A DNA stretch of 64,000 nucleotides from Corallococcus silvisoli (GTDB lineage Bacteria > Myxococcota > Myxococcia > Myxococcales > Myxococcaceae). The notes beneath the pieces were generated by a model that had not been told where the DNA came from, ran no database searches, and saw only the letters and a program-made list of their open reading frames with translations. Below, piece after piece: positions 50,201-64,000 of this stretch; within the stretch, counting starts at the first letter, position 1, and every line of letters starts with the position of its first letter. The stretch is from contig NZ_JAAAPJ010000005.1 in assembly GCF_009909145.1 (NCBI RefSeq), forward strand, positions 336,470 through 400,469, read 5' to 3'. A program made the translations under genes and the position numbers.

Positions 50201-51509
50201 TGCGCGAGACGCCCTTGAGCTTCGCGTCCTCCACGAACTCGGTGGCGAAGCCGCCCTGCAGCGAGCGGGCCTGGGTGTTGGCGCACAGGTGCACGCCGCT
50301 CTGGCGTCCGCCGTGCGTCATCAAGCGCGCGGCCATGTTCACGACCTCGCCCAGCGCCGAGTACCCCTTGCGCGTCGGGGAGCCCATGTCCCCGCAGTAG
50401 GCGTGGCCGGTGGCGATGCCGATCTGCAGCTCGTCCAGGAACGGGAACGACTCCCGGGCCTTGAGCAGCTTGCAGGCCAGCCGGCACGCCAGCACCTCCT
50501 TGTTCTGCTGGGCGGTGGGCGCGCCGAACAGGACGTAGAGCACGTTGCCCTTGTCCGTGAAGTCCGTCATCAGCAGCACGCCGCCGTGGTGGGCGCTCTC
50601 GCGCTGGACGAACTCGTAGTAGGCGTTGAGGTCGCGGGTGAACGCGCCGGGGTCGTGGTCCGACGTCGCATGCGTGAAGCGCACGAAGAAGCAGGTGACG
50701 TCGCGGAAGTCTCCGGTGAACTCCTGGTGCGCGGTGGTGATCTTCGTGAAGAGCACCGGGTGCAGCAGGAGCGCGCACCGGCCCACCAGCTCCGCCCCTC
50801 CCGTGGGCGGCGGCAGCGGGCGCTTGACGGAGTCCACCGGCGCGTCGAGCGCCAGCCGGTGGTTGCCGCCCTCGCGGGGCTCCCCCCTTCGCGCGGCTTC
50901 CGGCAACACGTCCCACGCACGGGGGCTGAGCACCACCTCCGACACCGTGGCCTGCTTCTCCGCGCCCACCGCCTGCGCCAGCGGCTCGCCCACGAGCGCC
51001 GGGTGCATCCACAGGCCGGTGCTCCCCATCACGATGCGGGTGGACTCACCAAAGCCGATGCCGATGCGCGACGACACGCCGAAGCGCTGACCCAACAGCT
51101 CCAGCCGCGCGAAGCGCGCGAGCCGCCGCTGCACGCCCAGCGCGCACACCGCCGCGCGCTGCACGACGTCTGCGTCCGCCTCGCCGGGCGCGGCCTCGAA
51201 GCACGCGAGGATGGAGTCTCCGGCGAACTGGTAGATGTCCCCGCCGTGGTCGCGGACCACGTCGATCATCTCCGTGTAGTAGTTCGTGAGCAGCCGCTGG
51301 AGCGCGTCGATGCCTCGCGGACCCGCGCCGCTCAGCCCCACCACGATGGGCGTGAAGCCCGCGATGTCCAGCAGCAGGATGGCGCCCCGCACGGCTTCCG
51401 CGTGCGGCAGCGAATCCGCCTCATGGCTCCCGAGCCGCGCGAGGATGGCCGCCGGCATGTAGGGCGCCAGCGCCGCGACCACCGGATCAATGGGCTGCGT
51501 GGAGGACAT
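47217..51509 (-). CDS. Tandem class III adenylate/guanylate cyclase domains fused to a P-loop NTPase and TPR-like repeats
   Basis: Two cyclase homology domains (LLLDIAGFT..., FVRFTHAT...GDKGNVLYVLFG...). Walker A SGEAGIGKSRL. Long helical repeat C-terminus. Confidence 0.88.
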   Translation of the reverse strand: MSSTQPIDPVVAALAPYMPAAILARLGSHEADSLPHAEAVRGAILLLDIAGFTPIVVGLSGAGPRGIDALQRLLTNYYTEMIDVVRDHGGDIYQFAGDSILACFEAAPGEADADVVQRAAVCALGVQRRLARFARLELLGQRFGVSSRIGIGFGESTRIVMGSTGLWMHPALVGEPLAQAVGAEKQATVSEVVLSPRAWDVLPEAARRGEPREGGNHRLALDAPVDSVKRPLPPPTGGAELVGRCALLLHPVLFTKITTAHQEFTGDFRDVTCFFVRFTHATSDHDPGAFTRDLNAYYEFVQRESAHHGGVLLMTDFTDKGNVLYVLFGAPTAQQNKEVLACRLACKLLKARESFPFLDELQIGIATGHAYCGDMGSPTRKGYSALGEVVNMAARLMTHGGRQSGVHLCANTQARSLQGGFATEFVEDAKLKGVSRTVPVYRLLGETRRGLFIKGRGDIIGRSRELNVLHEALNASFTGQGRVCVVSGEAGIGKSRLGARVLEDAEEGGARALYGVCYSYEMFTPFFPWKEVLLQAFGLHDSDDTEAQLTRLRQGLDGLEDVGPEWMPVVAGILGMSLEETSVTAGMDARRKQQKVFQIVFQLLEKLSHAQPLLLFFEDLHWADYISLDLLQHLAARVGSHRIMVLATMRPGDQLKGLRDTPEYCPVDLSSLDDEDTRALLRVHLRLSPPDVALEERLLAKVQGNPFFIESIVEGLAEQGYLGPVEPGASRMEVKRGLQDLLLPDSIQDVVLSRIDLLSETEKLVVKVASVIGRIFTLDAVAALVPSLAGPRLREAMDTLRRLGLTLLEAEEPYTCLFKHIVIRDVAYNTLLVSAREDLHRRLARYLEARASDNLAGSAGLLAFHFLAGNVEDKGLEYTLMAARSARAQYANDDALYHYNRGLELLGTVVPVDPEAMLLKTRRVMQELAETLLQAGHYANAILMFEQCLVDEEEVPQQAELHLGLGRAHQEKGESALATQHLEQSLVLRGRSLPGNLAALGARTLGNLLLRGLATLMPFVLRPLPASRLGNYLQQLSTLNSLIRIYYFADITKLTWATLVSTNMAERSRSDYAMSLASGYYGTLLFGAGLLKRARLHCERALTYALRSRDPVAEGLALSRLGIQAFFANELERAREFQEEAVSTLRQVGERWERQTSLMMQATGEFLHSRFRTAESLYEQMGTIGLELNALMHQGWAHSWAPMCRYLLGEGDVGELCAEMEQGLRISMEVADLANQCASLNHLANVTVREHQVEEAALVAVRCFKSIWSYQVLVPFLQVGLVDAAEAALFALEEGATVVSRKKLLRIVRLACLKARVIARLYPYLKGPALRVTARALALRKGPRAAEPVFLEAIAVLEKSPNRWETGVAYFDAAVALPHRRDAFLARARAIFTQVEAHAELRRMDRFQAAMQALLPGTAALPPLRAARGG

Positions 51510-52066: not shown

Positions 52067-52597
52067 CTACCGGGTGGCGGCCAGGAGGAACTCCGTCACC
52101 CGCTCCAGGGAGGTGGTGCGCTCGGCCTCCGCCGGGAAGCGCCGGAACAGCTCCGGTGGCCCATGGAGGATGAGCGGCTTGCCATAGCGCAGCGCCAGCA
52201 CGGCCTCCGCCGCGGTGCCCGCGCCCCCGGGCAGCGCCACCAGGGCGTGCGGGGTCAGCACGTTGATGTGGTTGCGGCTCATGGGGTCCGTGCCCTGCTC
52301 CCCGCTGAGCGGCAGGTGGGTGTAGATGGGGATTTCGATGTCCGTGTTCGGATAGCCGGGCCGGGGCTGGTAGCGGCCGTCCGTCCCCACGGTGCCGGGG
52401 ATGATGCCGATGGCCGCCCCCCGCCGCCCCTCCACCTGGACGAAGGCCTCCGCGGCCGCGCTCATCACACCGCCCCCCGCCCCGGTGAGCAGGTCGAAGC
52501 CCGCCTCGGCGATCCACCGCGCCAGGGGGACGACCCACTCCGCGTGGGCCTCCGCCCCCGAGCCGAAGACTCCGATGATGCGGCGGTGTCTGCGCAT
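52067..52597 (-). CDS. LOG/TIGR00725-family (SLOG-type Rossmann) protein
   Basis: IGVFGSG, LLTGAGGGVM and LPGGAGTAAE motifs. The track ORF is trimmed to ATG 52597. Confidence 0.7.
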   Translation of the reverse strand: MRRHRRIIGVFGSGAEAHAEWVVPLARWIAEAGFDLLTGAGGGVMSAAAEAFVQVEGRRGAAIGIIPGTVGTDGRYQPRPGYPNTDIEIPIYTHLPLSGEQGTDPMSRNHINVLTPHALVALPGGAGTAAEAVLALRYGKPLILHGPPELFRRFPAEAERTTSLERVTEFLLAATR

Positions 52598-52840
52598 GAC
52601 TGCATCCTCCCCAGGAGCCCCGAGCTGCGTGAGCCCCTGTTCCATGCGAATCCGTTGCCAACGCCGCAAGGGCTCACGGACCGCCGTGCGGCCTCCCTCC
52701 CGTCCACCCGTGGAAGGTGCGCGGGGCGAGCGTCCGACACCCGTCGCTTCCCCCCGCCTGGAGCGCCAGACGCCCTCACCCAACCTGGGATGTCGGACCC
52801 CTCCTCTACCTTCGTTCACGAATGAGCCCGGAGACTGCCC

Positions 52841-53146
52841 ATGTTCGACGCCTGTGGAGGTTGTGAGCGCCGTGGTACCGCCGGTGAGGTGTTCGACTGG
52901 TGCGCGCACTGCGAATTGTCCCTGTGCCCCCTCTGCCTCGGACGGGGCTGCTGCGGAAGCACCCCCGCGGAGTCCGGACGGGGCGCGCCCCGGGAGCTGC
53001 CCGAGCCCCCCGAGCACGCGTGCGAACCCCTGCCGGAGCACTTCGGCGGACGCTGCTGCACGCACGCGCGCGCGGTGGCGTGCTCCTGCGCCTTCCACTG
53101 GGTCTGCGTGCGCCACGGCGACGTGCACGTGGGGACGCACGACTGA
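52841..53146 (+). CDS. Cys-rich small protein (101 aa), B-box/zinc-ribbon-like N-terminus
   Basis: C5-x2-C8-x12-C21-x2-C24-x4-C29-x2-C32, then further Cys/His. High GC3. GGAGA lies upstream of the ATG. Confidence 0.55.
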   Translation: MFDACGGCERRGTAGEVFDWCAHCELSLCPLCLGRGCCGSTPAESGRGAPRELPEPPEHACEPLPEHFGGRCCTHARAVACSCAFHWVCVRHGDVHVGTHD

Positions 53147-53274
53147 CATCCGGTCAGTGCCCGGGTGACGTGAAGCATCAACCCCAGGCGGGGCGTTGAC
53201 ACATGGGGGGCCTGTCCACGACGGTTTCAGCCCGTCGGGCACTCCTGCCCGGACGCATCGCGGAGCAAGACACC

Positions 53275-53667
53275 ATGGGACTCGCCGAACGGAAGGAAAT
53301 GGCGGCGTTCAAGAGGGATTCCTTCGAGCCGAAGGTGCAGGAGCTGAGGCAGGCCGCGGGCGGCGCGGACATCCAGGCCACGCTCGACGAGGCCAGCTTC
53401 ACCACGGTGGCCGCCATCCAGATGATCTCCAACGGCATCTTCGACCGGCTCATCGACGACATGAAGTCCGTCTGCGACGACGACATCGGCAAGGAGGCCG
53501 TCCGGGACGGCATCAAGACGGTGCACATCCTCCACAAGGACGACGCCGGCTACACGCTGGAGCTGGGGGGCGGCACCTTCACCATCCGCGCGAAGGTGGA
53601 CGGCTCGCTGGGCGACGACCTGCCCGGGTACGGCGCCTACAAGGACTTCCTGCTGAAGAAGCTGTAG
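53275..53667 (+). CDS. Hypothetical protein (130 aa)
   Basis: High GC3 from ATG 53275 (MGLAERKEMAAFKRDSFEPKVQEL...). No motif recognised. Confidence 0.7.
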   Translation: MGLAERKEMAAFKRDSFEPKVQELRQAAGGADIQATLDEASFTTVAAIQMISNGIFDRLIDDMKSVCDDDIGKEAVRDGIKTVHILHKDDAGYTLELGGGTFTIRAKVDGSLGDDLPGYGAYKDFLLKKL

Positions 53668-53733
53668 GCCGCGCCGACAGGCCGGTGGGACGCCCGAGCT
53701 GGCCACCGCCAGCCCGGGATCATCCGCTCCAGC

Positions 53734-56700
53734 TCAGGGCACGTCCAACGCGACGCCCTGGCCCGGGACGGCCATCACCCAGCGGACGAGGTCAGGCTTG
53801 CCGCCGCAGGTGACGCGCACCTCGAACTCACGCCCCGCGGGCATGGGACTGGCGAGCGGCGTCTGCCCCTGGAGCACCTGGGAGCCCAGCGCGACGCGGC
53901 ACCCCTGGGCGCCGGTGACGCTGAGCGTGCCCCGGGCATCCGCCTGGGGCGCGGCATCCGCGAGCGTGCGCAGGTCGATGTGCTCGGCCTTCGCCACCTT
54001 GCCAAAGCGGTGCAGCTTGCCGTCCACGGCGGTGGAGACGAGCCAGCCGCCCGGATCCTCGGGCAGGGCGTGCTTGCCCTCCAGCAGCACGCCGGACACG
54101 TAGACGCGCTCACCCTCCTGGGCGTTGCGGACCTCCATGCCTCCCTTGGGCAACAGGAAGGCCAGCGCGAGCCCCGCGAGCACCAGTCCGCCTCCGCCCA
54201 CCCACAGCCCCTTGCGCTGACCGGACGTCAGGCCCTTGCCTGGCGCGGGGTGCCCGCCCGCGCTGGGAGCAACGGGCGCGGGCGGCGGCACGGCATGCAC
54301 CGGGGCCGGAGGTGGGGCCACGCGCTCTCCCGAGGCACGCGCATGCGTGGGCACGGGAGTGGAGCCAATGGGCGGCAAGGAGGCCGTGTGCGGAGGAGGC
54401 GGCGGCGCGGAGACCTGCGGCGCGGCGGCGACGGGAGGAGGCGGCGGGACCGCGGTCATCGGCGCCACGCTGGGCACGGAGACCGAGGGCCGCGCGGGCG
54501 GCTGCGGAGGAGGCCCCACGCGCGTGGGCACGTTGGCGGAAGCGGCCGGGCGCACCGCCGTCGGTGACGGCAACGGCGACACGGGCGGCGGCGCGGCAGG
54601 GCGCGAAGGACGGGGCGCGGGAGCGGCCATCACGGGCGGCGCGGCGGGAGGGCGCGGCGGTTCGGAGGCGACGGAGACGACCTCGGTGCCCCGCTCGGCG
54701 GGCTCGGGCGCGGCGGCGACGGGCGGCGGCTCCATCCGCGGCATGCTGCCGGAGCCCCCGCGCACGGGAGGCCGGGACAGGTCCGACGGAGCCCGCATGT
54801 CGCTGCCAGAACCGGAGCCCGTGCCCAGGTTGCGCGAGTGCGAACCCGTGCCCGGCATCAGCGCCCGGGGGTTGGAGCCCGTCCCCGAGCCGGCGATGGA
54901 GGACGGCGCGTACTCGGAGAGCCGGTCCCCCAGCGCCTCCTTGAAGAACTGCGCCACCGACGCGGGCGACGAGGACAGCCGGTGGTGCGCGATGACCGCT
55001 TCGATCTCCTCGCGCATCGCCGCCGCGGAGGGCGTGCGGCGCGCCGGGTCCTTCACCAGCGCGCGCAGGATGAGGTCGGACACGTCCTGCGGGATGTGCG
55101 GCTTGAGCTGCGAGGGCACCGGCGCGGGCTCGCGCACGATGGCCGCGAGCGTGGCCGCGTCATGGTCCCGGCGGAACGGCAGCTGCCCGGTGAGCAGTTC
55201 GAAGAGCACCACGCCCAGCGCGAACACGTCGTTGCGCCAGTCCAGCGGGCGGCCGCTGGCGGCCTCCGGGGAGAGGTACGAAATCTTCCCCTTGATGACG
55301 CCCGCCTGCGTCTGCTCCTCGCCCTGCACCTTGGCGATGCCGAAGTCCGACAGCTTGATGGCGCCGTCGAGCGACACGAGCACGTTGTGGGGGCTGACGT
55401 CGCGGTGGACCACCGGGTGCGCGGTGCCGGACGGGTCCACGTAGCTGTGCGCGTAGTGCAGGCCCGCCGCGACCTCCGCCACGATGCGCAGCGCGTGCTC
55501 CAGCGGCAGCGCCATGCCCTTGCGGCGCAGCTCCGTGATCAGGCGCTTGAGGTCCGGGCCGCGCACGTACTCCATCAGGATGTACGCCACGCCGTCCGTC
55601 ACGCCCACGTCGAAGGTCTGGACGATGTTGGGGTGCGTGAGGCGCGCGTTCGCGCGGGCCTCCGCGAAGAGCATGTCGACGAACTCGGGGTTCTCCGCGA
55701 ACTGCGCGAGGATCTTCTTCATCACCACGAACTTCTCGAAGCCCTTCACGCCCTGCTGCTTGGCGAGGAACACCTCCGCCATGCCGCCCTGCCCCAGCCG
55801 GCGGATGATCTGCAGCCGGGCGCTGCCGCCGTGCACGTCCGTGGGCGACGTGCCGCGGGCCCCGGGGTCCGCGTTGGTGGAGCCGAAGAGGTACTGGCTG
55901 AGCGCGCGCTGCTCCAGCGCCTCGATGTCGTCGAGCGGCTTCTCGGTGAGCGGCGTGCGCGCCAGCAGGCCCTGGAACTGCGCCAGCGCCGGGGCCCGCG
56001 CGGTGCCGCCGCAGACGGGGCACACGCGGTCCATGGTGCCCTTGGCGCGCAGCACCTCCAGGTATTCGGAGGTCTGGATGCGCTGGTGGGTGACCTGGCC
56101 GCAGTTGCGGCAGTCGCACGGCAGCCACAGCGTGGCCAGCTTCGCCGGCAGCGGCTTGGAGGACTTCGCCAGCACGCCCAGCATCGGCGGGGGCACGCGG
56201 CAGAGCACCACCTGCGCGCCCTGCGCCGCCACCTCCAGCACTTGTTCGATGCGCGGCAGGGCCTCCGGCTCCACCGTGCTCACGTGACAGCAGTCGAACG
56301 CGACGCGCCCCTCCAGGCCGGACGCGAGCCGGCGCACGTTGAGGTCGCCCTTCAGCGTGCTGGCCAGGGTGATGAAGGTGATGTCGTCCTGGATGATCTT
56401 CAGGTGCGAGGAGAGCTCGGACGGCTCCGACGGACTGCTGGCGCGCAGGTAGCGCAGCACGGCCGGGTCCACCGCGGAGAACTGCTGGCGGCGGGCGAAG
56501 TCGAAGAACTCCGTGGGCTCGTCCGCGAACTCCAGGGGCTGCGCGCACACGGGGCACTGGTGCGGCGGGGCGCCGCCCTGCTCCAGGATCTTCGCCTCCT
56601 CCACCAGCCGGACCAGCCGCAGCCGGTCCTCCTTGCAGAAGCGGCAGGTGTAGGGCGCCAGCAGGGAGAGCACGCGCGCGACGCCCGCGAAGCCCTCCAC

Positions 56701-56973
56701 CATGTTGAGCTGATCCACCACCACCGGCGGCGCGTTGACGACGTACAGGGCCGACACGCCCTGCGGCGGGTGGCCCACGAACTCAATCCACCGGCGGACG
56801 CCGAAGGAGCTGATCCGCTCCACCAGGCCCAGGTCCACCACCACCAGCCCCGACATCCCCTTGGAGGCGGGGGAGAGGGGGAAGGTCTCGTCGATCACTC
56901 CGGCCACGCGCACGTGGGTCAGACTGCCCACGCGCAGGGGGGTGATGCTGGCATTGGAAGTTTGGCTTTCCAC
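53734..56973 (-). CDS. Hanks-type Ser/Thr protein kinase with two N-terminal STAS-like modules, zinc ribbons, one TM helix and a C-terminal extracytoplasmic domain
   Basis: Kinase motifs GQGGMAEV, VVMKKI, HRDVSPHN and DFGIAK. STAS-like VVVDLGLVERISSFGVRRW. CxxC...CxxC pairs (CRFC..CPVC, CRNC..CPVC). TM helix GLWVGGGGLVLAGLALAFLL. Probable GTG start 56973 with GAGGG upstream. Confidence 0.88.
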   Translation of the reverse strand: MESQTSNASITPLRVGSLTHVRVAGVIDETFPLSPASKGMSGLVVVDLGLVERISSFGVRRWIEFVGHPPQGVSALYVVNAPPVVVDQLNMVEGFAGVARVLSLLAPYTCRFCKEDRLRLVRLVEEAKILEQGGAPPHQCPVCAQPLEFADEPTEFFDFARRQQFSAVDPAVLRYLRASSPSEPSELSSHLKIIQDDITFITLASTLKGDLNVRRLASGLEGRVAFDCCHVSTVEPEALPRIEQVLEVAAQGAQVVLCRVPPPMLGVLAKSSKPLPAKLATLWLPCDCRNCGQVTHQRIQTSEYLEVLRAKGTMDRVCPVCGGTARAPALAQFQGLLARTPLTEKPLDDIEALEQRALSQYLFGSTNADPGARGTSPTDVHGGSARLQIIRRLGQGGMAEVFLAKQQGVKGFEKFVVMKKILAQFAENPEFVDMLFAEARANARLTHPNIVQTFDVGVTDGVAYILMEYVRGPDLKRLITELRRKGMALPLEHALRIVAEVAAGLHYAHSYVDPSGTAHPVVHRDVSPHNVLVSLDGAIKLSDFGIAKVQGEEQTQAGVIKGKISYLSPEAASGRPLDWRNDVFALGVVLFELLTGQLPFRRDHDAATLAAIVREPAPVPSQLKPHIPQDVSDLILRALVKDPARRTPSAAAMREEIEAVIAHHRLSSSPASVAQFFKEALGDRLSEYAPSSIAGSGTGSNPRALMPGTGSHSRNLGTGSGSGSDMRAPSDLSRPPVRGGSGSMPRMEPPPVAAAPEPAERGTEVVSVASEPPRPPAAPPVMAAPAPRPSRPAAPPPVSPLPSPTAVRPAASANVPTRVGPPPQPPARPSVSVPSVAPMTAVPPPPPVAAAPQVSAPPPPPHTASLPPIGSTPVPTHARASGERVAPPPAPVHAVPPPAPVAPSAGGHPAPGKGLTSGQRKGLWVGGGGLVLAGLALAFLLPKGGMEVRNAQEGERVYVSGVLLEGKHALPEDPGGWLVSTAVDGKLHRFGKVAKAEHIDLRTLADAAPQADARGTLSVTGAQGCRVALGSQVLQGQTPLASPMPAGREFEVRVTCGGKPDLVRWVMAVPGQGVALDVP

Positions 56974-56977
56974 CCGC

Positions 56978-57823
56978 CTACCCTCGTTCCAGACAGAACA
57001 GCAGCGACTTGGGCTGCGCGGCCCGGCGGCGTGTATCCCCCAGGTCCACCCCACAAGCGAATTGCGTCCGCTTTCCCGGGGTCACCCGCACCGCCACTGC
57101 GTCGCTGTGCTCCAGGATGCGCCGCAGACCCAGGCCCGCGCCACCGCCAGAAGCATCCACCTGCGCCTTCTCACCCCACGCCTTCACCACCCGCACCAGC
57201 GGTGACACCGTCAGCCGGCCGAAGCGGTCCGTCGCCTCCAGCCACGCGCGGCCCTCCGCCACCGCCCAGGACACCAGGCAGCGATCTTCCTCGGCCACCG
57301 CCTGCACCTGTCCCCGCCGGTGGGCGTACTTCGGCTGCCCCTCGGCGTCCACCGGGGCGTCGAGGAGCGCGTTCACGCCAATCTCATGGACGACATCCGC
57401 CACCCGGCTGGCCGCGCCCTTGGAGGCCCCCGTCCGCAGGACCTCCTCCGCGGCGCGCTCGCCCGCGGCCGTCACCTCCGCCACGCTGCCCAGCCAGGCC
57501 ACGGACGTGGCGGCCTCCCGCGGAATCAGGGGCTCGCCGCGCAACAGCGAGCTCAAGAGCCGCGCCTCCCAGCCGGACGGCTGCCCCGCCTCGCCGCGAG
57601 TGGCCAGGAGCAGGGCCGGGGGCCGCTGCTCCAACATCGCCGCGTGCGCGGCCGTCAGCCGCCCGTCGAAGAGCACCAGTCGCGGCGCCGCGTCGTCACC
57701 CCGCCCCAGCAACAGGCCATCCCGGGCGAGCACCCCGGAGGCCTTTTCCAGCGCCTCCGGCGTGAGGGTCGTATCCGGCGTCAACTTCAGGGGAGCATCC
57801 TTCACGGCGGCGACGGTATCCAA
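56978..57823 (-). CDS. RsbW/SpoIIAB-like HATPase domain protein
   Basis: C-terminal half has an N-box-like HEIGVNALLDA, then DRFGRL and GGGAGLGLRRI. Start uncertain: TTG 57823 lies 8 nt after the receptor stop. Stop lies 4 nt before the kinase GTG. Confidence 0.65.
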   Translation of the reverse strand: MDTVAAVKDAPLKLTPDTTLTPEALEKASGVLARDGLLLGRGDDAAPRLVLFDGRLTAAHAAMLEQRPPALLLATRGEAGQPSGWEARLLSSLLRGEPLIPREAATSVAWLGSVAEVTAAGERAAEEVLRTGASKGAASRVADVVHEIGVNALLDAPVDAEGQPKYAHRRGQVQAVAEEDRCLVSWAVAEGRAWLEATDRFGRLTVSPLVRVVKAWGEKAQVDASGGGAGLGLRRILEHSDAVAVRVTPGKRTQFACGVDLGDTRRRAAQPKSLLFCLERG

Positions 57824-57831
57824 ACAGCGCC

Positions 57832-60453
57832 CTAATAATGGAGTCGAACTTCTGTGAAGACGCCCAGCGGCGGAGCGGGGAAGCCGTGGGACTCCTCGTA
57901 CTTCGCGTTGAACAGGTTCGTGCCCAGCAGGGACACCGCCACCCGTTCGTGGACGTTGAAGCCCACGCGCGCCGTCGCGGTGATGTAGCTGGGCAGCTTC
58001 ACGCGGGTGGTGGTGCCCGCGTTCTCGTCCACCACGAAGCCGGGGTCGAAGCGCGGGCCCACGAACAGGCCGTAGAGCTCCACGAAGGCGAACTTCCCGA
58101 TGTTGGTGCGGCCGCGCAGGTAGACGCGGTGGCTGGGCGCGTAGTCCAGCGGGTAGCTGGCCCCGCCGCCCACGGGCAGCGCCTGGGCATCCAGGAACTG
58201 GTAGGCCACGTCGAAGGACGAGTTGAGGGACGGCACCTGCGCCGCCGCCTCCGCCTCGAAGCCCGCCACGCGCGCGTCGCCCAGGTTGCGGAACTGGGAC
58301 GTGGAGCCGAAGACGAGCTCCTGATTGATGAAGTTGCGGGCGCGGTTGTAGAAGCCCGTGCCCGTCAGGCGCACCCGGCGGTCGAACGGCCAGAAGTCCA
58401 CCGCCGCCTCCACCGTGTCCAGCGTCTCCGCGCGCAGCGACGGGTTGCCCAGCAGCGTCGCGGCGTACATCTGCTGGTTGATGGCGAGCTCCGCCAGCGT
58501 GGGCGCGCGGAAGGCGCGGCCGTAGTTGGTGCGCAGCGTGAGCAGCTCCGGGATGGCGTGGAACACGACGCTGGCGCGCGGGGAGATCTGATCCGTGCGC
58601 GCCTCCCAGACCTTTTCGGGGATCTGGTAGTTGTCGTAGCGGGCGCCCGCGCCCACCACCAGCCGGTCCGTGGCGCGGAACTCCGCGTCCACGAAGCCGC
58701 CCAGGATGGTCTGCTTCGTGTCATCCAGGGTCAGGCCCGGGAGCACGTTCTGGTTGTTCACCTGGTCGGCCTTCACGTCGCCGCCCACGGTGACGGACAG
58801 CCGGTCCAGGGAGAAGAGCGCGCGCGCCTCGCCGCCCAGCCGGCTGCGCTTGCCCAGCGTGTCCTCCAGCGCGCCCGTGATTTCATTCTCCAGCGTCACG
58901 TTGCGGCGCTTGAAGAACGCATAGCCCTGGGCGAACACGCGCACGTTGTCCGTCACCTGCTGATCCAGCTGCACGGCGGCGTTCAGGTTCTGGACGTGCT
59001 CGTTGTCCTGCGCGGTGTAGTGGCAGCGACCGCAGTTGCCCACGGTGGAGATGTTCTGCCCACCGGGCCGGCCGATGTTGCCGTCGGTGAAGTCCGCGTC
59101 CAGCGCGAGGGGACCCACGCGGACCTTGCCGTTCACCTGGTGCACCAGCGAGTCCTCGTTGGTGTCCGTCTGGTTGAGCTGCGGGTTGTTGAAGAGCTGC
59201 GGGCCGTCCGAGCCGTAGCCGTAGTAGCCGAGCAGCGCCTCCACGGGGCCACCGCGGCCGGCGACGTTGGTCTGCAGGCGCCACGTCTTGTCCTGGCCGG
59301 CGAGGATGCGCGCGTCGGCGCCCACGTTCTGGCCCTTGGCGATGAGATCGCCCGGCTGGCGCTCGATGATGTTGATGACGCCGCTGAAGGCGTTGGAGCC
59401 GTAGAGCGACGAACCCGGGCCGCGGATGACCTCCACCTGCTTGAGGTTGGTCAGCGGCGTCGTCTCATCCGCGTAGAACTGGCCCGTCCAGGGATCCGTC
59501 AGCGGACGGCCATCCTTGAGCAGCAGGAGGCGGTTGGACAGGTAGTTGGAGCCCAGGCCGCGCGCGCTCACCGCCGCCTTGCGCATGGAGCCCCGGCGGC
59601 ACTCCATGCCGGGGAAGTACTGGATGGCCTCGCAGAGCGAGAACTGGCCGGTGCCCTCCAGCTCCTCCGCCGGAATCCAGGACACCGTGAGGGGCACGTC
59701 GGAGATGCGCTGGCTGCGCTTGGAGGCCGTGGTGACCATGGCCTCGCTCAGCGCCTGGTTGACGGTCTTCTCGAAGTCGTCGCCGTTGCCCAGCGCATCC
59801 GGGCCATCCAGGCCGGAGAGGCTGGAGGGCGGCGGCATCGCGCGGTCCGACGCGGGCTCCGTGAAGGGCGCGCGGTCCGGGACGTTCTCGTTCATCCGCG
59901 GCTGCGAGCCCGACAGCACCGCGCCAGCGCCCAGGTGCTGCGCGGGCGGCGGGTTGGCCGGCACATCCGACGTCAGCGGGCCGTCGTAGGGAGACGGCGA
60001 CGCGACGGGCGTCCCCGGCGAGGCGACGGGCATCGGATCCGCCACCGACGGGCCCGGGCCGGGCGCGGCCACCGGGGCCGGCTGCTCCACGGGCGGCGTG
60101 GCGACGAACGGCTCCTCCGTGGGAGATGGCGCGGCGTCCGGCTCCACGGGCGGCGGAGGCGTCTTCGCCCCCCTGCGCGTCTTCGCCGTGCGCGCGGGTT
60201 TCGTCCCCGGCGCGGCGCTCTTCGCCGCTGGCGTGGCGCTCTTCGCCGCTGGCGTGGCGGGCGCGGCACGCTTGCGCGTGGCCTTCGTCCGCGTCTTGGG
60301 AGCCGGCTCCTGGGCCTCCTGGGCCTGGGCACGTTCCACCGTGAACAGCGACAGGGCGCACAGCACCAACGTCAGACGCGCGAACGCGCCCGGCCGTCCT
60401 GCAAGCCCCTTCACCGCGAAGCTTCGCGGCCCACCGTACTCAGTCGAGTCCAT
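57832..60453 (-). CDS. TonB-dependent receptor with a ~190-aa low-complexity N-terminal extension
   Basis: Signal peptide. Plug region (SKRSQRISDVPLTVSWIPAEELE...VEVIRGPGSSLYGSNAF). C-terminal barrel ending VFTEVRLHY. Confidence 0.88.
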   Translation of the reverse strand: MDSTEYGGPRSFAVKGLAGRPGAFARLTLVLCALSLFTVERAQAQEAQEPAPKTRTKATRKRAAPATPAAKSATPAAKSAAPGTKPARTAKTRRGAKTPPPPVEPDAAPSPTEEPFVATPPVEQPAPVAAPGPGPSVADPMPVASPGTPVASPSPYDGPLTSDVPANPPPAQHLGAGAVLSGSQPRMNENVPDRAPFTEPASDRAMPPPSSLSGLDGPDALGNGDDFEKTVNQALSEAMVTTASKRSQRISDVPLTVSWIPAEELEGTGQFSLCEAIQYFPGMECRRGSMRKAAVSARGLGSNYLSNRLLLLKDGRPLTDPWTGQFYADETTPLTNLKQVEVIRGPGSSLYGSNAFSGVINIIERQPGDLIAKGQNVGADARILAGQDKTWRLQTNVAGRGGPVEALLGYYGYGSDGPQLFNNPQLNQTDTNEDSLVHQVNGKVRVGPLALDADFTDGNIGRPGGQNISTVGNCGRCHYTAQDNEHVQNLNAAVQLDQQVTDNVRVFAQGYAFFKRRNVTLENEITGALEDTLGKRSRLGGEARALFSLDRLSVTVGGDVKADQVNNQNVLPGLTLDDTKQTILGGFVDAEFRATDRLVVGAGARYDNYQIPEKVWEARTDQISPRASVVFHAIPELLTLRTNYGRAFRAPTLAELAINQQMYAATLLGNPSLRAETLDTVEAAVDFWPFDRRVRLTGTGFYNRARNFINQELVFGSTSQFRNLGDARVAGFEAEAAAQVPSLNSSFDVAYQFLDAQALPVGGGASYPLDYAPSHRVYLRGRTNIGKFAFVELYGLFVGPRFDPGFVVDENAGTTTRVKLPSYITATARVGFNVHERVAVSLLGTNLFNAKYEESHGFPAPPLGVFTEVRLHY
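60215..60256 (-). repeat. Perfect 21-bp tandem duplication encoding ATPAAKS x2
   Basis: gcgctcttcgccgctggcgtg occurs twice in direct succession, inside the Lys/Ala/Pro tract of the receptor. Confidence 0.9.
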
Positions 60454-60688
60454 CGTTCTCTATTCCACGAGGGGAAGCAGGGATGTCCGCGGTCCTTGCG
60501 CCAGGATCCAGAGCCGGTGCGACTGGCAATCGTCCACAGGGGCGTGTTTCCACCCCTGAACGGTGGCGTTCCGCTCGACTTCTCAAATTACCGCAATAAC
60601 TGGTCTAAGGCCAAGTCATGGCTGTCGATCCCAGCAAATCGCGCGCGCGGCATCGCAAGGCCGCGCGCGGATCAGCCGCGCCACGCCG

Positions 60689-61606
60689 TCAGTCGTCGGG
60701 CTGTTCGGCGGAGACGGCCAGGTCGTCCGCGAACGGCGGCAGCGCGGGACCCAGCGAATCCGACTGCACCAGCGCGGGCGTCTCCACCCGCAGGTCGGGG
60801 GCGTCCGCGAAGACGGGCAGCCGGCGCGGAGGACCCTGGGTGACGAGCTTGCGGAAGTCGTCGAATTCACGGCCCTGGATGCGGGCGAAGGCGTCGAACG
60901 GGGCCACCGCCCCCACTTCGGGCAGGGACTGGGCCAGCGCGCTCCCCCCGCCCTTCAAGTCCACCAGCACCGCGCTCGGCACCCGGGCGCTGCGGAAGAG
61001 CACGCGCTGGTCCTTGGGGACGTGCGCCACGGGAACGAGCGCGGCCTCCGCGCCCTTCGCCTCCAGCATCTTCACCGCCGACTCCACGTTGGGCACCGGC
61101 ACCAGCTTGAAATGACGCTGCGCGTCCAGGTCTCCGCCCAGGACGACGTGGGAGACGAACTTGGGATCCGCGGGGCCCGCGCCCTTGACGAGCGCCATGC
61201 GCTTGCCGGCGAGGTCCTTCACGGTGCCCTTCTGGGTGGAGATGATGGCCCAGCGCTGCTGCGTCTCACCGGCGTGCGGCGCGTACGCCACGGGGTCCGC
61301 CTTGGCGCCCAGCTGCACGGCGGCCCAGGCGTCCACCACGGCGAAGTCGATCTGCCCCTCGCCCACCGCCTTGGAGAAGTCCTCGTAGCGGCCGAAGCTG
61401 CGGGCGGCGACGGGGCGCCCCAGGGCGGCCTCCAGCTTCTGGGCCAGCGCCTCCGCGTACTGGAAGCGCTCCTGGCCGTCCGACAGCGTGGTGGCGAGGA
61501 ACACGCCCAGCGTCGCCTTCTTGGGCGCCGCGGACGCGGGGAGTGCGACGAACAGCACGGCGGCGAGCAGGAGGCTCCACCGCGCGACAAGGGATGGCGT
61601 CTTCAC
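60689..61606 (-). CDS. Periplasmic substrate-binding protein, PhnD-like
   Basis: GTG start 61606 with GGAGGA upstream, overlapping the TPR gene stop. Signal peptide VKTPSLVARWSLLLAAVLFVALPASA. Type-2 periplasmic binding-protein-like pattern (YEDFSKAVGEGQIDFAVVDAW). The family call is tentative. Confidence 0.6.
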   Translation of the reverse strand: MKTPSLVARWSLLLAAVLFVALPASAAPKKATLGVFLATTLSDGQERFQYAEALAQKLEAALGRPVAARSFGRYEDFSKAVGEGQIDFAVVDAWAAVQLGAKADPVAYAPHAGETQQRWAIISTQKGTVKDLAGKRMALVKGAGPADPKFVSHVVLGGDLDAQRHFKLVPVPNVESAVKMLEAKGAEAALVPVAHVPKDQRVLFRSARVPSAVLVDLKGGGSALAQSLPEVGAVAPFDAFARIQGREFDDFRKLVTQGPPRRLPVFADAPDLRVETPALVQSDSLGPALPPFADDLAVSAEQPDD

Positions 61607-63993
61607 GGTGTCTCCTCCGCGACCCCGGAGGCCTGACCGACGCCCTGCGCGTCGCCCAGCCCGTAGAGGCCCTGCAGGCGGTCCTTCCATTCCCGAACCT
61701 GGGCGGCGCGGGGGCCCACGCCCGAGGCCAGGTAGCGGCGCCAGGCGTCCACGGCCTCGGCGGGTTCGTGGCGGCGGTCCTGCGCGTCGATGCCAAGGTT
61801 GAGCGCGGCGATGGGGACGGCCGTCTCCAGGCGCTTCCACGCCGTCAGCGCCGCCGCCGTCTCGCCCTGGCGCCAGTCCACGCAGGCCAGGTTGTGCTGC
61901 ACGAGCGCGTCGTCGGGCGTGGCGGCCAGCGCGGCCTTCAGCGCCTTCTCCGACGCCTTCATGTTGCCGGAGGCGTACGCGAGCGCCGCCTCGCGCCGGA
62001 GCAGCGCGCCGGTGAGGTTGCCCATCCAGCGGGGCTGCCCGGGCATGGGCTTCTTCTGGGCGGTGGTGAGCAGCTTGCGCGAGGGCGCCACCTTCCCCTG
62101 GCGGTACAGCACCCACGCGTCCGCGAGCGGGCGCGTGTTGGGCCACGCCCACTCCGGGGTCGGCGTGAGCGCGCGCTTGGTGCCGGCGGTGGCGTCCGCG
62201 AACTTGCCCTCCTCCGCGCGCGTGAGCGCCCGGGCGAAGGTGGCCAGCTTCGCCAGGTCCGCGCGCTTGCCGGTGCCCAGGCGGTCCACCGCGTCCAGGT
62301 CCCGGTTCGCCGAGGCCGCGTCGCCGACCTCCAGCTTCGCCAGGGCCCGGCGCACCAGCACGCGCGGCAGGTTCGCCTCCGCCACCTTCGCCGCCGTCTT
62401 GGAGGGCCCCGCGTCCGTCAGCCGCTGCACGGCGGCGTCCACCTGGCCCAGCTCCACCTCCGCGAGCGCGGCACCCGCGGAGGCCTCCGCGCGCTGATCC
62501 GGCTCCTGCGTGGCCTCACCGGACTGGGTGAAGGCGGCGAGCGCGGCCTGCGCGTCCCCGCCGCCCAGCCGGGCGTAGCCCAGGAGCAGGTGCTCGCGCC
62601 AGGTCGCGCCCGGCAGCGTCACCGCGCCCTCCATCACCTTGCGAGCCTCCGCGAACTGGTGGCTGTCCAGGAGCGCCGCGCCCAGCCGGCGGGCCATGGC
62701 CACGGAGCGATCCAGGTCGTACGCGCGGCGCAGGTCGCGCACGGCGTCGTCCAGGCGCTGCGTGCCCGCGCGGTCGCGCGCGCGGTGCGCCAGCGCTCGG
62801 GCCAGCCACTGGCTCGCGCCGGGGTGGCCGGGTTCGACCTGGAGCGCGCTGCTGTAGTCCTCGATGGCCTGGTCCCACTGGCCGGTGGCGAAGTGGTCCG
62901 CCCCCAGCAGCATCCAGCCCAGCGCCTGGCGCGGCGCCATCTCCACCACGCGCCGGTGCACCTCCACCGCGCGCTGATAGCGGCCGGCGCGGCGGTTGAC
63001 GGAGCCCAGCGTCGCCCACAGCTCCAGGCTGCCTCCGCCCGACTTCACCGCCGCCTCCAGGAACTGGATGGCCTCCTCGTGGCGGGCCTGCGCCTGGAGC
63101 GCCTTGCCCACGGCGATCTGCCCCATCAACAGGCCCGGCTGCAGCTCCAGCACCTTGCGGAACTCGGCCTCGGCCTGCGCGGGCTGCTTCTGCGCGAGCC
63201 GCACGTCGCCCAGCAAGAGGTGCGCGGCGGGCGTGGCGCCCAGGTTCACCAGCGCCAGCGCCTGGGCCTCCGCGCGGGGCACGTCCCCCGCGGACAGGTA
63301 CAGCCGCGCGAGGCGCTCCTTCGGCTCCGCCACCTGCGGGAACTTCGTCACCAGCCGCTCCAGCAGCGTGCGGGCCTCCGGGACGCGGCCCTCCAGCTCC
63401 AGCACCGCGGCGAGGCCGATCTGCGCGGTGGCGGACTCCGCCCTCCCCGCCTGGGCCTTCTCGAACGCGGCGCGCGCGGCGGGCGCGTCCCGGCGCAGCA
63501 GGTGCGCCTTGCCCAGCAGCTCGAGGATCTGGAAGTCATTGCCCGCGAGCTTCTCCGGGCGCAGCGACAGGTAGCGCTGGAGCCGCGCCACCGCGCGGTT
63601 CCCGTCCTGCACGTACAGGTAATAGCTGGCCAGGTAGTAGTGGACGATGAGGTGGTCCGGCTGATCCGCGGCGGCCACCTGCTCCAGGAGCGGCACGGCC
63701 TCCTGGAAGCGGCGCAGCTTGAAGTACGCCGTGCCCAGCGGGTACGCGAGCGACAGCTCCGCGCGGTTGCGCTCGAACACCGGCTGGAGGCGCGCGGCCG
63801 TGCGCTGGAAGTCCTGGAGCGCGTTGGCGGCGCTGCCCAGGCCCGCGGCGGCCGTGATGGACTGCGGCTCCTGCGTGAGGGCCTGCTCGAAGAGCTGGAG
63901 CGCCTTCTTGAACTTCTCCTCCGCCTCCTTCTTGTCGCCCTTGGACGCGGCGGCGTTGGCGGACACGAGCGCCTGCTCTCCCTGCTCCGTCAT
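61603..63993 (-). CDS. TPR-repeat protein (N-terminus may lie beyond the window)
   Basis: Repeated A-x3-F/Y-x2-A-L-x-L-x-P 34-residue patterns throughout. First ATG at 63993, but the frame stays open to the window edge. Confidence 0.8.
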   Translation of the reverse strand: MTEQGEQALVSANAAASKGDKKEAEEKFKKALQLFEQALTQEPQSITAAAGLGSAANALQDFQRTAARLQPVFERNRAELSLAYPLGTAYFKLRRFQEAVPLLEQVAAADQPDHLIVHYYLASYYLYVQDGNRAVARLQRYLSLRPEKLAGNDFQILELLGKAHLLRRDAPAARAAFEKAQAGRAESATAQIGLAAVLELEGRVPEARTLLERLVTKFPQVAEPKERLARLYLSAGDVPRAEAQALALVNLGATPAAHLLLGDVRLAQKQPAQAEAEFRKVLELQPGLLMGQIAVGKALQAQARHEEAIQFLEAAVKSGGGSLELWATLGSVNRRAGRYQRAVEVHRRVVEMAPRQALGWMLLGADHFATGQWDQAIEDYSSALQVEPGHPGASQWLARALAHRARDRAGTQRLDDAVRDLRRAYDLDRSVAMARRLGAALLDSHQFAEARKVMEGAVTLPGATWREHLLLGYARLGGGDAQAALAAFTQSGEATQEPDQRAEASAGAALAEVELGQVDAAVQRLTDAGPSKTAAKVAEANLPRVLVRRALAKLEVGDAASANRDLDAVDRLGTGKRADLAKLATFARALTRAEEGKFADATAGTKRALTPTPEWAWPNTRPLADAWVLYRQGKVAPSRKLLTTAQKKPMPGQPRWMGNLTGALLRREAALAYASGNMKASEKALKAALAATPDDALVQHNLACVDWRQGETAAALTAWKRLETAVPIAALNLGIDAQDRRHEPAEAVDAWRRYLASGVGPRAAQVREWKDRLQGLYGLGDAQGVGQASGVAEETP

Positions 63994-64000
63994 GCGCTGG

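Follow-up and report, generated by a model that had tools for sequence, protein, structure and literature searches.

A partner-switch-type gene cluster with a STAS-fused Hanks kinase as its candidate output, next to a TonB-dependent receptor, in Corallococcus silvisoli

Introduction

Eukaryotic-like kinases number about a hundred or more in myxobacteria, and to our knowledge almost none of them has a known input or control mechanism. The question of how such a kinase could be controlled is raised by a locus of Corallococcus silvisoli, in which genes for a TonB-dependent receptor, an RsbW/SpoIIAB-like protein and a membrane kinase follow one another within a stretch of 64,000 nucleotides, referred to here as the window. 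An earlier note on this DNA proposed that the three genes couple surface sensing through a partner switch onto the kinase. The switch itself gained support from the co-conservation of RsbW-like, STAS and SpoIIE components, while the receptor proved to lie outside the conserved core. According to a 2010 phosphatome survey (PMC2887360), Myxococcus xanthus was considered nearly free of partner-switching components: a single SpoIIE-like phosphatase was assigned to it, and STAS or RsbW proteins were recognised in small number.

Gene organization of the locus

The receptor gene (57832-60453; 873 aa, ATG start), the middle gene (56978-57823; 281 aa, TTG start) and the kinase gene (53734-56973; 1079 aa from the GTG at 56973) lie in series on the minus strand, and the ORFs and junction sequences bear out the earlier description of close packing with gaps of 8 and 4 nt. 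They encode a TonB-dependent receptor, an RsbW/SpoIIAB-like protein of the GHKL serine-kinase type and a membrane Hanks-type Ser/Thr kinase, orthologous to MXAN_4559, MXAN_4558 and MXAN_4557, respectively. The receptor/middle junction reads ...TAG ggcgctgt TTG... and the middle/kinase junction ...TAG gcgg GTG..., with a GAGG about 7 nt 5' of the kinase GTG. At its longest the kinase ORF begins at 57054, the excess part overlapping the middle gene; the chosen starts match the aligned N-termini of orthologues (METATP.., MSTAPH.., METQGSNA..). Since GC3 is 0.94, 0.88 and 0.94 in the receptor, middle and kinase genes and 0.66 in the large overlapping plus-strand ORFs, the minus-strand ORFs were taken as the coding frames.

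Two further minus-strand genes precede the receptor. The first cluster gene visible inside the 64-kb window encodes a cytoplasmic TPR protein (61603-63993; 796 aa, matching Pfam TPR families), in which neither a signal peptide nor a TM segment was found. Its stop codon overlaps the GTG start (GTGA) of a gene for a PhnD-like periplasmic solute-binding protein (60689-61606; 305 aa, Pfam Phosphonate-bd 5.5e-11), whose signal peptide ends in ...ALPASA before AP and whose assignment draws on start codon, SD and signal peptide; this gene is kept upstream of the receptor gene in type-A loci. Between the binding-protein and receptor genes lies a gap of 235 nt (60454-60688, minus strand), because of which the cluster may comprise more than one transcript. 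An internal promoter may lie in the gap, though neither a sigma-70-like site nor an Rfam element was detected there. The promoter scan found no sigma-70-like promoter, and an Rfam scan of 53000-64000 gave two sub-threshold snoRNA-like chance matches only and no riboswitch 5' of the receptor gene. The terminator scan gave one 5-bp terminator-like hairpin, located within the 3'-terminal part of the middle gene; chance alone would yield more. At the other end, a GC-rich inverted repeat, CCCGGGCTGG-6 nt-CCAGCTCGGG, at 53693-53718 between the kinase stop and a convergent gene (53203-53667) likely marks the end of the transcription unit. A minus-strand ORF at 53227-53706 was considered as a fourth operon gene and rejected, its GC3 being 0.66 against 0.94 for the convergent plus-strand gene.

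The RsbW-like protein

The middle protein is made of two halves, an N-terminal alpha/beta domain (57509-57823, minus strand) that may be a degenerate receiver, and a C-terminal ATP-binding domain (56981-57505, minus strand) with an N box (E147, N151), a G1 box (D199, G202) and a G2 box (G226-G232). It contains the motifs HEIGVNALLDAP and GGGAGLGL, neither of which varies within the family. Of the box residues, E147, N151, D199, G202 and G227-G232 lie where the secondary structure of the fold would place them and show no variation among 29 orthologues or across paralogues that share 21-28% identity with the window protein. An AlphaFold model adopts the Bergerat ATP-binding fold, with 1l0o, 1tid and 6m36 as the best structural matches, and is closest to STAS-phosphorylating kinases rather than to generic GHKL ATPases.

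Sequence profiles told less. Neither Pfam nor NCBIfam matched the whole protein at E<=1, its two halves and 29 family members also gave nothing usable, and a single one of the 29 members touched HATPase_c (E=0.12). Aligning the family by hhalign with a SpoIIAB sequence produced no meaningful alignment, a profile search of PDB sequences with the family alignment returned 0 matches, and a homologue search with a broadened RsbW-like alignment returned almost only orthologues. The earlier assignment as RsbW/SpoIIAB-like thus holds by fold and by the invariant ATP boxes and lacks a HATPase sequence HMM. HMM support for HATPase and STAS, whose absence the earlier note would have counted against its reading, is formally wanting, with no match for the middle protein and a marginal E=0.1 for STAS_2 in the kinase; the models support both assignments at the level of the fold. 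Because no Pfam or NCBIfam model covers it, the RsbW-like family would merit a new family definition. The literature search found no publication on MXAN_4557 or MXAN_4558.

The STAS-Zn-ribbon kinase

The kinase gene, read on the minus strand, begins with STAS-1 (56644-56952) and a first Zn ribbon (56524-56652; Cys 110/113/140/143), followed by STAS-2 (56110-56403) and a second Zn ribbon (55984-56121; Cys 288/291/318/321, with C286 adjoining the set). The kinase domain (55015-55812; Pfam Pkinase, E 3.3e-42) has all catalytic motifs, namely GQGGMAEV at 394, VVMKK at 416, HRDVSPHN at 523, DFG at 543 and SPE at 568. A Pro-rich linker (54259-54906; 26% Pro) leads to a TM segment (~54148-54210; residues ~922-942) and to a periplasmic domain of ~135 residues (53737 to ~54147) that has no Pfam match. 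The layout described earlier, with two STAS modules, CxxC pairs, a Hanks domain, a Pro-rich linker and one TM helix, is retained; the part outside the membrane is ~135 rather than ~150 residues long, and the STAS modules are marginal by HMM. PF01740 is precomputed for three homologues (P0122, P0124 and P0126), and a STAS HMM matched one of 26 paralogue segments (E=0.005). In the AlphaFold model the modules have the STAS alpha/beta fold, with moderate confidence for STAS-1 (pLDDT ~57-85).

The candidate acceptor is S56 of STAS-1, which in the model caps the N-terminus of helix 56-67 after strand 3. Its position is occupied by Ser in 101/101 motif occurrences, found with a search pattern that also permitted Thr and Ala, and hhalign pairs it with SpoIIAA S58 at weak statistics. 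The earlier placement of this Ser at the SpoIIAA/RsbV phosphorylation site is supported. The equivalent site of STAS-2 is variable and has no conserved Ser.

The same architecture extends to a large paralogous family, the full pair of STAS-Zn-ribbon units plus kinase being present in most of the 150 best-scoring 50%-identity clusters. The alignment used for the exhaustive search of representatives kept kinase-domain columns, so that its 812,621 matches are dominated by generic kinases and only the top-ranked full-length matches are informative.

The modules might serve as a ligand-binding or oligomerization scaffold, as in SLC26, YchM and MlaB, with no phospho-switch at all; the middle protein would then bind ATP and regulate the Hanks kinase in the manner of a chaperone or as a pseudo-kinase. 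Such a reading is very unlikely, given an invariant Ser exactly at the SpoIIAA/RsbV acceptor position, a middle protein whose closest folds are those of STAS-phosphorylating kinases, and the co-conservation of a SpoIIE phosphatase.

Conserved synteny and the SpoIIE phosphatase

The middle and kinase genes are adjacent in 56/56 assessable genome loci, a synteny far exceeding chance. The spacers are likewise short elsewhere: the 8 and 4 nt of Corallococcus (L001) correspond to ~3 and 5 nt in L014 and to ~12 and 5 nt in Archangium (L013). In Myxococcaceae and Archangiaceae the gene order is PP2C, TPR protein, periplasmic binding protein, receptor, RsbW-like protein and STAS-kinase, and it is kept across loci of Corallococcus, Myxococcus, Pyxidicoccus, Archangium, Hyalangium, Vitiosangium and Citreicoccus. 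PADLOC gave generic kinase-domain matches only (PD-T4-6, mad6), and a defence-system reading was discarded in view of the conservation of the locus as a chromosomal cluster in two families.

Forty-three receptor-containing loci have a HAMP-SpoIIE ORF at their 5' end, and in all Corallococcus loci this ORF ends ~135 nt upstream of the TPR gene. Judging from relatives at 87-92% nucleotide identity, the HAMP-SpoIIE gene of this genome is expected just past position 64000, outside the window. The M. xanthus orthologue, MXAN_4562, carries HAMP and was reported as the sole SpoIIE-like phosphatase of that species, in an orthologue group with sce8427 and adeh0917, in the 2010 survey (PMC2887360). This sole phosphatase appears to share its cluster with two cryptic partners, an RsbW-like kinase and the STAS modules of the Hanks kinase, and through this shared cluster the orphan enzyme gains a specific candidate substrate that can be tested, namely Ser56 in the orthologue of MXAN_4557.

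Six loci (L048, L049, L050, L054, L055 and L058) have the middle and kinase genes and no receptor gene. L058 reads HAMP-SpoIIE, middle gene, kinase, and L049 and L054 read HK-REC4-SpoIIE, SBP, middle gene, kinase. The three partner-switch components are therefore encoded together in the 43 receptor-containing loci and in L049, L054 and L058, the window itself ending before the phosphatase gene. The periplasmic binding protein is PhnD-like in the receptor-containing loci and SBP_bac_8 in several receptor-less ones. Since distant relatives do without it, the receptor is best regarded as a clade-specific addition to the core; of the three-gene order expected to be conserved, only the middle/kinase pair is constant.

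Paralogous STAS-Zn-ribbon or kinase genes are adjoined by RsbW-like genes in 13 loci (12 from metagenomes, plus L068, a MAG contig reached via a paralogue), in differing orders and orientations. In about half of the long paralogue loci no neighbour is RsbW-like or a PP2C, so the STAS Ser there would have to depend on proteins acting in trans or on the fused kinase. The latter leads to another model, in which the Hanks domain phosphorylates the STAS Ser in cis or in trans and the RsbW-like protein is a downstream effector held or released by STAS, with its own target elsewhere, for example a sigma factor; the signal would then run from the periplasm through the Hanks kinase and STAS to the RsbW-like protein. 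The fusion does unite kinase and STAS in one polypeptide, every catalytic motif is present, the Ser motif is kept in more than 100 paralogous STAS-kinase clusters, roughly half of the long loci examined lack the neighbours as just described, and PknD of Mycobacterium tuberculosis provides a precedent, as it phosphorylates the STAS protein Rv0516c (PMC1847690). However, the ATP-binding residues of the RsbW-like protein are all invariant, which a pure binder would not need, the co-conserved SpoIIE-type phosphatase is the usual antagonist of RsbW-type kinases, and no sigma factor gene was found among those genes of the window neighbourhood and of loci L063-L068 whose domains were examined. Phosphorylation of STAS by the Hanks domain is accordingly judged unlikely, and phosphorylation by the RsbW-like protein is preferred.

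The TonB-dependent receptor and its role

The receptor consists of a signal peptide (60319-60453; residues 1-45, ending in ...VERAQA before QE), a Pro/Ala-rich low-complexity extension (59749-60318; residues 46-235), a TonB-box-like EAMVTTAS (~59716-59748) that precedes the plug, the plug (59377-59706; residues 250-359, Pfam 2.8e-18) and the barrel (57913-59088; residues 456-847, Pfam 1.3e-40), all on the minus strand, and thus has the plug, barrel and TonB box of a TonB-dependent receptor. Pfam detected no STN domain, also when the isolated extension was searched at E<=10, and the extension alone had no Pfam match; a receptor with a low-complexity extension of ~190 aa in place of a signalling domain, as first described, was therefore found again. 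The extension is present in orthologues at varying length, the distance from the chosen ATG to the plug being 92 to 328 residues, signal peptide included; it shows basic residues clustered just behind the signal peptide, and an NVPxRAPFT motif is conserved in it. The nearest NCBIfam likeness is to haem and siderophore receptors, below cut-off. MXAN_4559 was detected in outer-membrane vesicles of M. xanthus (PMC4158809).

TonB-dependent transducers of the FecA/FecR/FecI type likewise have a receptor with an N-terminal extension, encoded beside signalling proteins of the cytoplasmic membrane. Unlike them, the present receptor lacks STN, an anti-sigma factor and an ECF sigma factor, its extension is disordered and Pro/Ala-rich, its gene neighbours encode the binding protein, the TPR protein and the RsbW-like protein, and it is dispensable in related clusters. 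The idea that the receptor extension contacts the C-terminal domain of the kinase is contradicted as a general principle by the receptor-less loci, most of which keep the periplasmic domain of the kinase.

Receptor, binding protein and TPR protein could instead form an ordinary nutrient-uptake module, inserted in and co-transcribed with a signalling operon to which it has no signalling connection. The absence of STN, the low complexity and variable length of the extension, the haem/siderophore likeness and the persistence of the middle-kinase pair and of the kinase periplasmic domain in distant loci without receptor all speak for this. Yet the insertion lies inside the phosphatase-to-kinase cluster in an order kept across seven genera, the spacer before the RsbW-like gene is ~3-12 nt where read, the cluster has no ABC permease or ATPase genes to go with the binding protein, and the receptor-less relatives keep a periplasmic binding protein gene in the same place. 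Mere uptake is thus the less probable reading, though the strongest of the alternatives weighed here, and a tie of the receptor to the circuit remains plausible.

A model for the circuit

Gene structure, folds, motif invariance and synteny were established computationally. The reading to which we lean, by a modest preference, is a conserved cluster of six genes with a partner-switching-type phospho-relay as its core, of which the three genes are the distal half. The cluster looks like a complete and previously unrecognised partner switch with a eukaryotic-like kinase, not a sigma factor, as its output. Three components would make up its core: a sensor phosphatase in the membrane that combines a periplasmic loop with HAMP and SpoIIE/PP2C (MXAN_4562 in M. 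xanthus), the middle gene product as a cytoplasmic RsbW/SpoIIAB-like serine kinase, and STAS acceptor modules that, rather than being free proteins, form the N-terminal part of the membrane Hanks kinase. The phosphorylation pairs, the direction of the signal, the role of the receptor and its ligand are inferred. The RsbW-like protein would bind unphosphorylated STAS-1 and phosphorylate its invariant Ser56, and periplasmic stimulation of the PP2C would remove the phosphate. The phosphorylation or occupancy of STAS-1 would then determine how active the Hanks kinase attached to it is, or how it oligomerizes, and with that the phosphorylation of the kinase's substrates, much as SiaA, SiaB and SiaC control SiaD.

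The TPR protein, binding protein and receptor are additions of Myxococcaceae and Archangiaceae between the phosphatase and RsbW-like genes. The receptor most likely imports a ligand across the outer membrane, which the binding protein may then present to one or both of two periplasmic domains, those of the phosphatase and the kinase. Binding protein feeding membrane phosphatase is an input route at least as likely as receptor-kinase contact, and is supported by fusions of periplasmic-binding domains to SpoIIE-like phosphatases in Sorangium, described in the survey (PMC2887360). If the receptor link is true, TonB-dependent surface signalling would here take a form that needs no sigma factor.

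The cluster also suggests a regulatory logic for the large paralogous family of STAS-Zn-ribbon kinases. In a broader and rather improbable version, a widespread, unannotated architecture of Myxococcota hard-wires the SpoIIE/RsbW/STAS switch to Hanks kinases via tandem STAS-Zn-ribbon modules, and Myxococcaceae and Archangiaceae captured a receptor and a binding protein as input. Such hard-wiring would join the two major bacterial Ser/Thr phosphorylation systems, and the capture would allow cell-surface signals to pass from the outer membrane to a eukaryotic-like kinase with no ECF sigma/anti-sigma pair involved.

Comparison with known systems

Parts of this arrangement were seen before. The accessible text of the phosphatome survey (PMC2887360) describes STAS (COG1366) fused to eukaryotic-like kinases in Sorangium cellulosum; within that text no such fusion is reported for M. 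xanthus, MXAN_4557 and MXAN_4558 go unmentioned, no link is drawn from MXAN_4562 to them, and the receptor-containing cluster is undescribed.

The SpoIIE/SpoIIAB/SpoIIAA and RsbU/RsbW/RsbV switches of Bacillus have three activities whose equivalents are predicted here, and share the GHKL N, G1 and G2 boxes as well as a Ser acceptor that begins the helix following strand 3. In contrast to them, the present cluster has no sigma gene among the genes whose domains were examined, Pfam and NCBIfam detect no membership at the sequence level, STAS is fused to a Hanks kinase, and the phosphatase is a transmembrane HAMP protein. A close known system is SiaABCD of Pseudomonas aeruginosa (PMC7647112; PDB 6kko), whereas the Corallococcus cluster is known from sequence and models. 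Here the acceptor modules are duplicated, each with a Zn ribbon, and fused to the output enzyme, which is a membrane Hanks kinase where SiaD is a diguanylate cyclase; an additional domain precedes the ATP-binding half of the RsbW-like protein, and the cluster also includes genes for a receptor, a binding protein and a TPR protein. PknD and Rv0516c of M. tuberculosis likewise couple a receptor Hanks kinase functionally to a STAS anti-anti-sigma homologue (PMC1847690). There STAS is a separate substrate and no dedicated RsbW-like/PP2C pair is encoded with PknD, whereas here STAS lies inside the kinase and the RsbW-like and PP2C genes are co-conserved with it.

The conserved gene cluster

In the window, the TonB-dependent receptor gene (57832-60453), the middle gene encoding 281 aa (56978-57823) and the kinase gene (53734-56973) were delimited on the minus strand from ORFs and GC3. 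The junctions, TAG-ggcgctgt-TTG of 8 nt and TAG-gcgg-GTG of 4 nt with GAGG preceding the kinase start, bear out the close spacing described in the earlier note, and the chosen starts of the middle and kinase genes fit the N-termini of orthologues. The region has a G+C of ~71%. GC3 values of 0.94, 0.88 and 0.94 for receptor, middle gene and kinase indicate that these ORFs are the coding frames. Long overlapping plus-strand ORFs and a minus-strand ORF at 53227-53706 were rejected as genes (GC3 0.66). The unit probably ends with the kinase gene. A GC-rich inverted repeat (53693-53718) lies between its stop and a convergent plus-strand gene for 154 aa of unknown function (53203-53667, GC3 0.94), which ends 66 nt from that stop. 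Over 9-10 kb, nucleotide identity to Corallococcus exercitus, carmarthensis, interemptor and coralloides is 91-92%. The minus-strand neighbours downstream, a SLOG (LDcluster4) family protein (52067-53242) and a protein of 1430 aa that combines adenylate/guanylate cyclase, AAA_16 and TPR domains (47217-51509), are placed outside the core because they adjoin the cluster only in Corallococcus, Hyalangium and a few Myxococcaceae MAG loci.

When one genome was scanned per species, relatives of the middle protein were located at 62 loci. The STAS-kinase gene directly follows the middle gene in 56 of 56 loci where the contig allows, and the receptor precedes the middle gene in 46, from Corallococcus, Myxococcus, Pyxidicoccus, Citreicoccus, Archangium, Vitiosangium, Hyalangium and several MAGs; a JGI metagenome contig (L063) also carries receptor, middle gene and kinase in that order. 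Of the three-gene order that the earlier note wanted checked in other Myxococcales, the middle-kinase pair is kept in every locus assessed, and the receptor is absent from six distant loci. The receptor gene is preceded by genes for a periplasmic binding protein of the PhnD type and for a TPR protein of 796 aa; in the window the former protein has a signal peptide and the latter has none. At 61603-61606, GTGA contains both the TGA stop of the TPR gene and the GTG start of the binding-protein gene, a start preceded by GGAGGAG; this suggests translational coupling.

In the receptor-less locus L058, a HAMP-SpoIIE phosphatase gene lies directly upstream of the middle gene, and two others (L049 and L054) encode, in this order, a HAMP-HisKA-HATPase-4xREC-SpoIIE protein, an SBP_bac_8 binding protein, the middle protein and the kinase. 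In L049, a MAG locus, a second, paralogous STAS-kinase gene (12-1601) lies upstream of the HK-REC4-SpoIIE gene, at a distance of a few kb. When all loci were searched with these SpoIIE domains, 43 of those containing the receptor proved to carry at their 5' end an L058-phosphatase orthologue (E ~1e-72), encoded on the same strand ~130 nt before the TPR gene, so that the conserved order is PP2C phosphatase, TPR protein, binding protein, receptor, RsbW-like protein and STAS2-kinase. The cluster phosphatase has two TM segments around a ~150-aa loop, then HAMP and SpoIIE domains. Since the TPR gene of the window starts at 63993, the phosphatase gene would lie beyond the window end, and it is expected just past it from eleven Corallococcus-type loci (L001-L011, 87-92% nucleotide identity).

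In M. xanthus, according to a published phosphatome survey, MXAN_4562 is the single SpoIIE-like phosphatase, carries a HAMP domain and has orthologues in Sorangium and Anaeromyxobacter (PMC2887360). By numbering it stands four genes from MXAN_4558, the middle-gene orthologue, and MXAN_4559 was confirmed as the receptor. MXAN_4545-MXAN_4561, overlapping the TPR-to-kinase cluster, are listed as a 'lantipeptide' region in a biosynthetic-cluster table (PMC4902038), probably through region padding or a kinase-domain match. A whole Myxococcus-like cluster with 79% nucleotide identity to the window also occurs in L030 (BNCN01000007.1), titled 'Comamonas sp. KCTC 72670', an assembly that is probably mislabelled or contaminated.

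The RsbW-like protein

The middle protein belongs to the MXAN_4558 family of 185 homologues annotated 'hypothetical', of which the named ones are all myxobacterial (Myxococcaceae/Archangiaceae genera or Myxococcales MAGs). The RsbW/SpoIIAB-like ATP-binding half proposed for it is upheld by fold and motifs and not by sequence HMMs: the protein, its halves and 29 family members gave no useful-level match to Pfam or NCBIfam models, and a profile search of PDB sequences gave 0 matches. The AlphaFold model (pLDDT 88) has two domains, and the nearest folds to the C-terminal one are precisely the STAS-phosphorylating kinases, namely SpoIIAB (13.2), UsfX/RsbW (12.0), SiaB (11.2), RsbW (10.8) and the Rv1364c RsbW domain (10.1), with histidine-kinase CA domains at <=6.9; Foldseek agrees. 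The GHKL boxes are family-invariant and at the expected places in the model: N (E147 and N151 in HE..NA..DAP), G1 (D199 and G202 in DRFGRL) and G2 (GGGAGLG, residues 226-232). They are still invariant in paralogues at 21-28% identity to the window protein. The N-terminal domain, a small alpha/beta fold of ~105 residues, is possibly a degenerate receiver; paralogue N-terminal domains look receiver-like (IGILDANR.., LLACDASD), and Foldseek aligns the whole model to LvrC, a REC plus GHKL protein.

The STAS-kinase

The kinase has a Pkinase domain (Pfam E 3e-42) with every catalytic motif, a linker of 26% Pro and one TM segment (~922-942), as the earlier note had described; the part beyond the membrane is ~135 periplasmic residues rather than about 150, and Pfam recognised no domain in it. 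The Pro-rich linker (window 54259-54906) has a G+C of 0.75-0.77, and many draft Corallococcus and Myxococcus contigs end inside it, ~2.3 kb into the kinase gene (L001, L002, L004, L007-L011). This probably explains why public kinase orthologues are mostly 'partial' and why a word-indexed protein search gave only truncated kinases.

The two N-terminal STAS modules, each with a CxxC...CxxC ribbon, are borne out at the fold level. The model of the first 385 residues (pLDDT 77, module 2 more confident than module 1) contains a beta-beta-beta-alpha-beta-alpha-beta unit twice, each followed by a four-Cys ribbon. HMM support for STAS is marginal, with STAS_2 at E=0.1 in the window kinase, STAS in 1 of 26 paralogue segments and PF01740 precomputed for three homologues; Zn_ribbon_8 matches 14 of the 26 segments. 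An ENA protein (P0126) has the same STAS-1-Zn-ribbon start, then cNMP-binding and more STAS domains and no kinase domain.

STAS-1 is marked by the motif R-[IVM]-[ST]-S-[FY]-G-V-R-x-W, in which the second Ser/Thr position, S56 in the window kinase, caps the N-terminus of the helix following strand 3. This position is Ser in 101 of 101 motif occurrences across all fetched loci, under a pattern that also permitted Thr and Ala, in keeping with the Ser that the earlier note pointed out in STAS-1. With hhalign, S56 falls on S58 of SpoIIAA, the phosphorylated residue, over 77 collinear columns in a statistically weak alignment (E 0.005, probability 7%). STAS-2 has no conserved Ser at the equivalent position. 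In the main rival to phosphorylation of S56 by the RsbW-like protein, the STAS Ser would be a substrate of the Hanks domain itself, with the RsbW-like protein as effector; PknD, which phosphorylates Rv0516c (PMC1847690), is a precedent, and we consider this reading unlikely.

In an exhaustive HMMER search, whose profile included the kinase domain, the full STAS-ZnR, STAS-ZnR, kinase layout was present in most of the best 150 50%-identity clusters; among the top clusters many are ~700 aa, and in some the kinase domain precedes the STAS pair. A metagenome scan with the paralogue STAS1-ZnR alignment yielded 36 loci, analyzed by HMM searches on six-frame ORFs. In 12 of the 36, an RsbW-like gene adjoins the STAS or kinase genes, downstream, upstream or divergent, and a paralogue's MAG contig (L068) is a further case, with the RsbW-like gene divergently transcribed. 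SpoIIE genes are adjacent in L073, L079, L091, L092, L094-L097 and L099. Roughly half of the loci >=7 kb have one or both partners. That the neighbourhood is kept while its genes are rearranged argues strongly for a joint function of the RsbW-like protein, SpoIIE phosphatase and STAS-kinase. The association is not universal. Two-gene paralogous systems are also frequent (L081, L084, L085, L086, L090, L091), in which X-STAS-ZnR-STAS-ZnR without a kinase domain precedes kinase-STAS-ZnR-STAS-ZnR; an RsbW-like gene follows in only some.

The receptor and the proposed switch

Pfam places the Plug at residues 250-359 and the TonB-dependent barrel at 456-847 of the receptor, with no STN signalling domain and no match to the N-terminal 230 residues taken alone. 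A signal peptide is followed by ~190 Pro/Ala-rich residues and a TonB-box-like EAMVTTAS, which agrees with the low-complexity extension in place of a signalling domain noted earlier. The extension occurs in every orthologue at variable length (92-328 residues from chosen ATG to plug, signal peptide included), with a short basic patch at its start and a conserved NVPxRAPFT motif at its end. MXAN_4559 is a predicted beta-barrel protein present in M. xanthus outer-membrane vesicles (PMC4158809, PMC3222651).

In the literature searched, recognition of the MXAN_4558 family, which is without a model, as RsbW-like was not found, nor were the tandem STAS-Zn-ribbon module of MXAN_4557-type kinases, a link of MXAN_4557/MXAN_4558 to the sole SpoIIE phosphatase, or a TonB-dependent receptor embedded in such a cluster. 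Partner switches with non-sigma outputs are already known. Among systems studied experimentally, SiaA/B/C/D of P. aeruginosa is the best analogue: phosphorylation of a STAS-like protein is set there by the balance between a PP2C-like phosphatase and an RsbW-like kinase (PMC7647112), and the STAS-like protein in turn binds and activates the enzyme SiaD (PMC8457831). In a recent Anabaena preprint, partner switching is likewise carried further, to an enzyme under its direct control, and STAS-eukaryotic-like kinase fusions were noted in Sorangium in 2010 (PMC2887360).

Beyond fold and synteny, we infer as the most parsimonious reading a partner-switch-type phospho-cycle on STAS-1 Ser56. The RsbW-like kinase would write the phosphate, the membrane HAMP-SpoIIE phosphatase would erase it, and the Hanks kinase, fused to the STAS modules, would read out the state of Ser56. 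The receptor extension may touch the periplasmic domain of the kinase, as the earlier note proposed; such a contact cannot be the ancestral principle. The favoured input would run from the receptor through the periplasmic binding protein to the phosphatase and/or the kinase, at their periplasmic domains, because Sorangium has SpoIIE phosphatases with fused periplasmic-binding domains (PMC2887360), a binding-protein gene is kept in several receptor-less loci, and loci that have the receptor and loci that lack it both conserve the periplasmic domain of the kinase.
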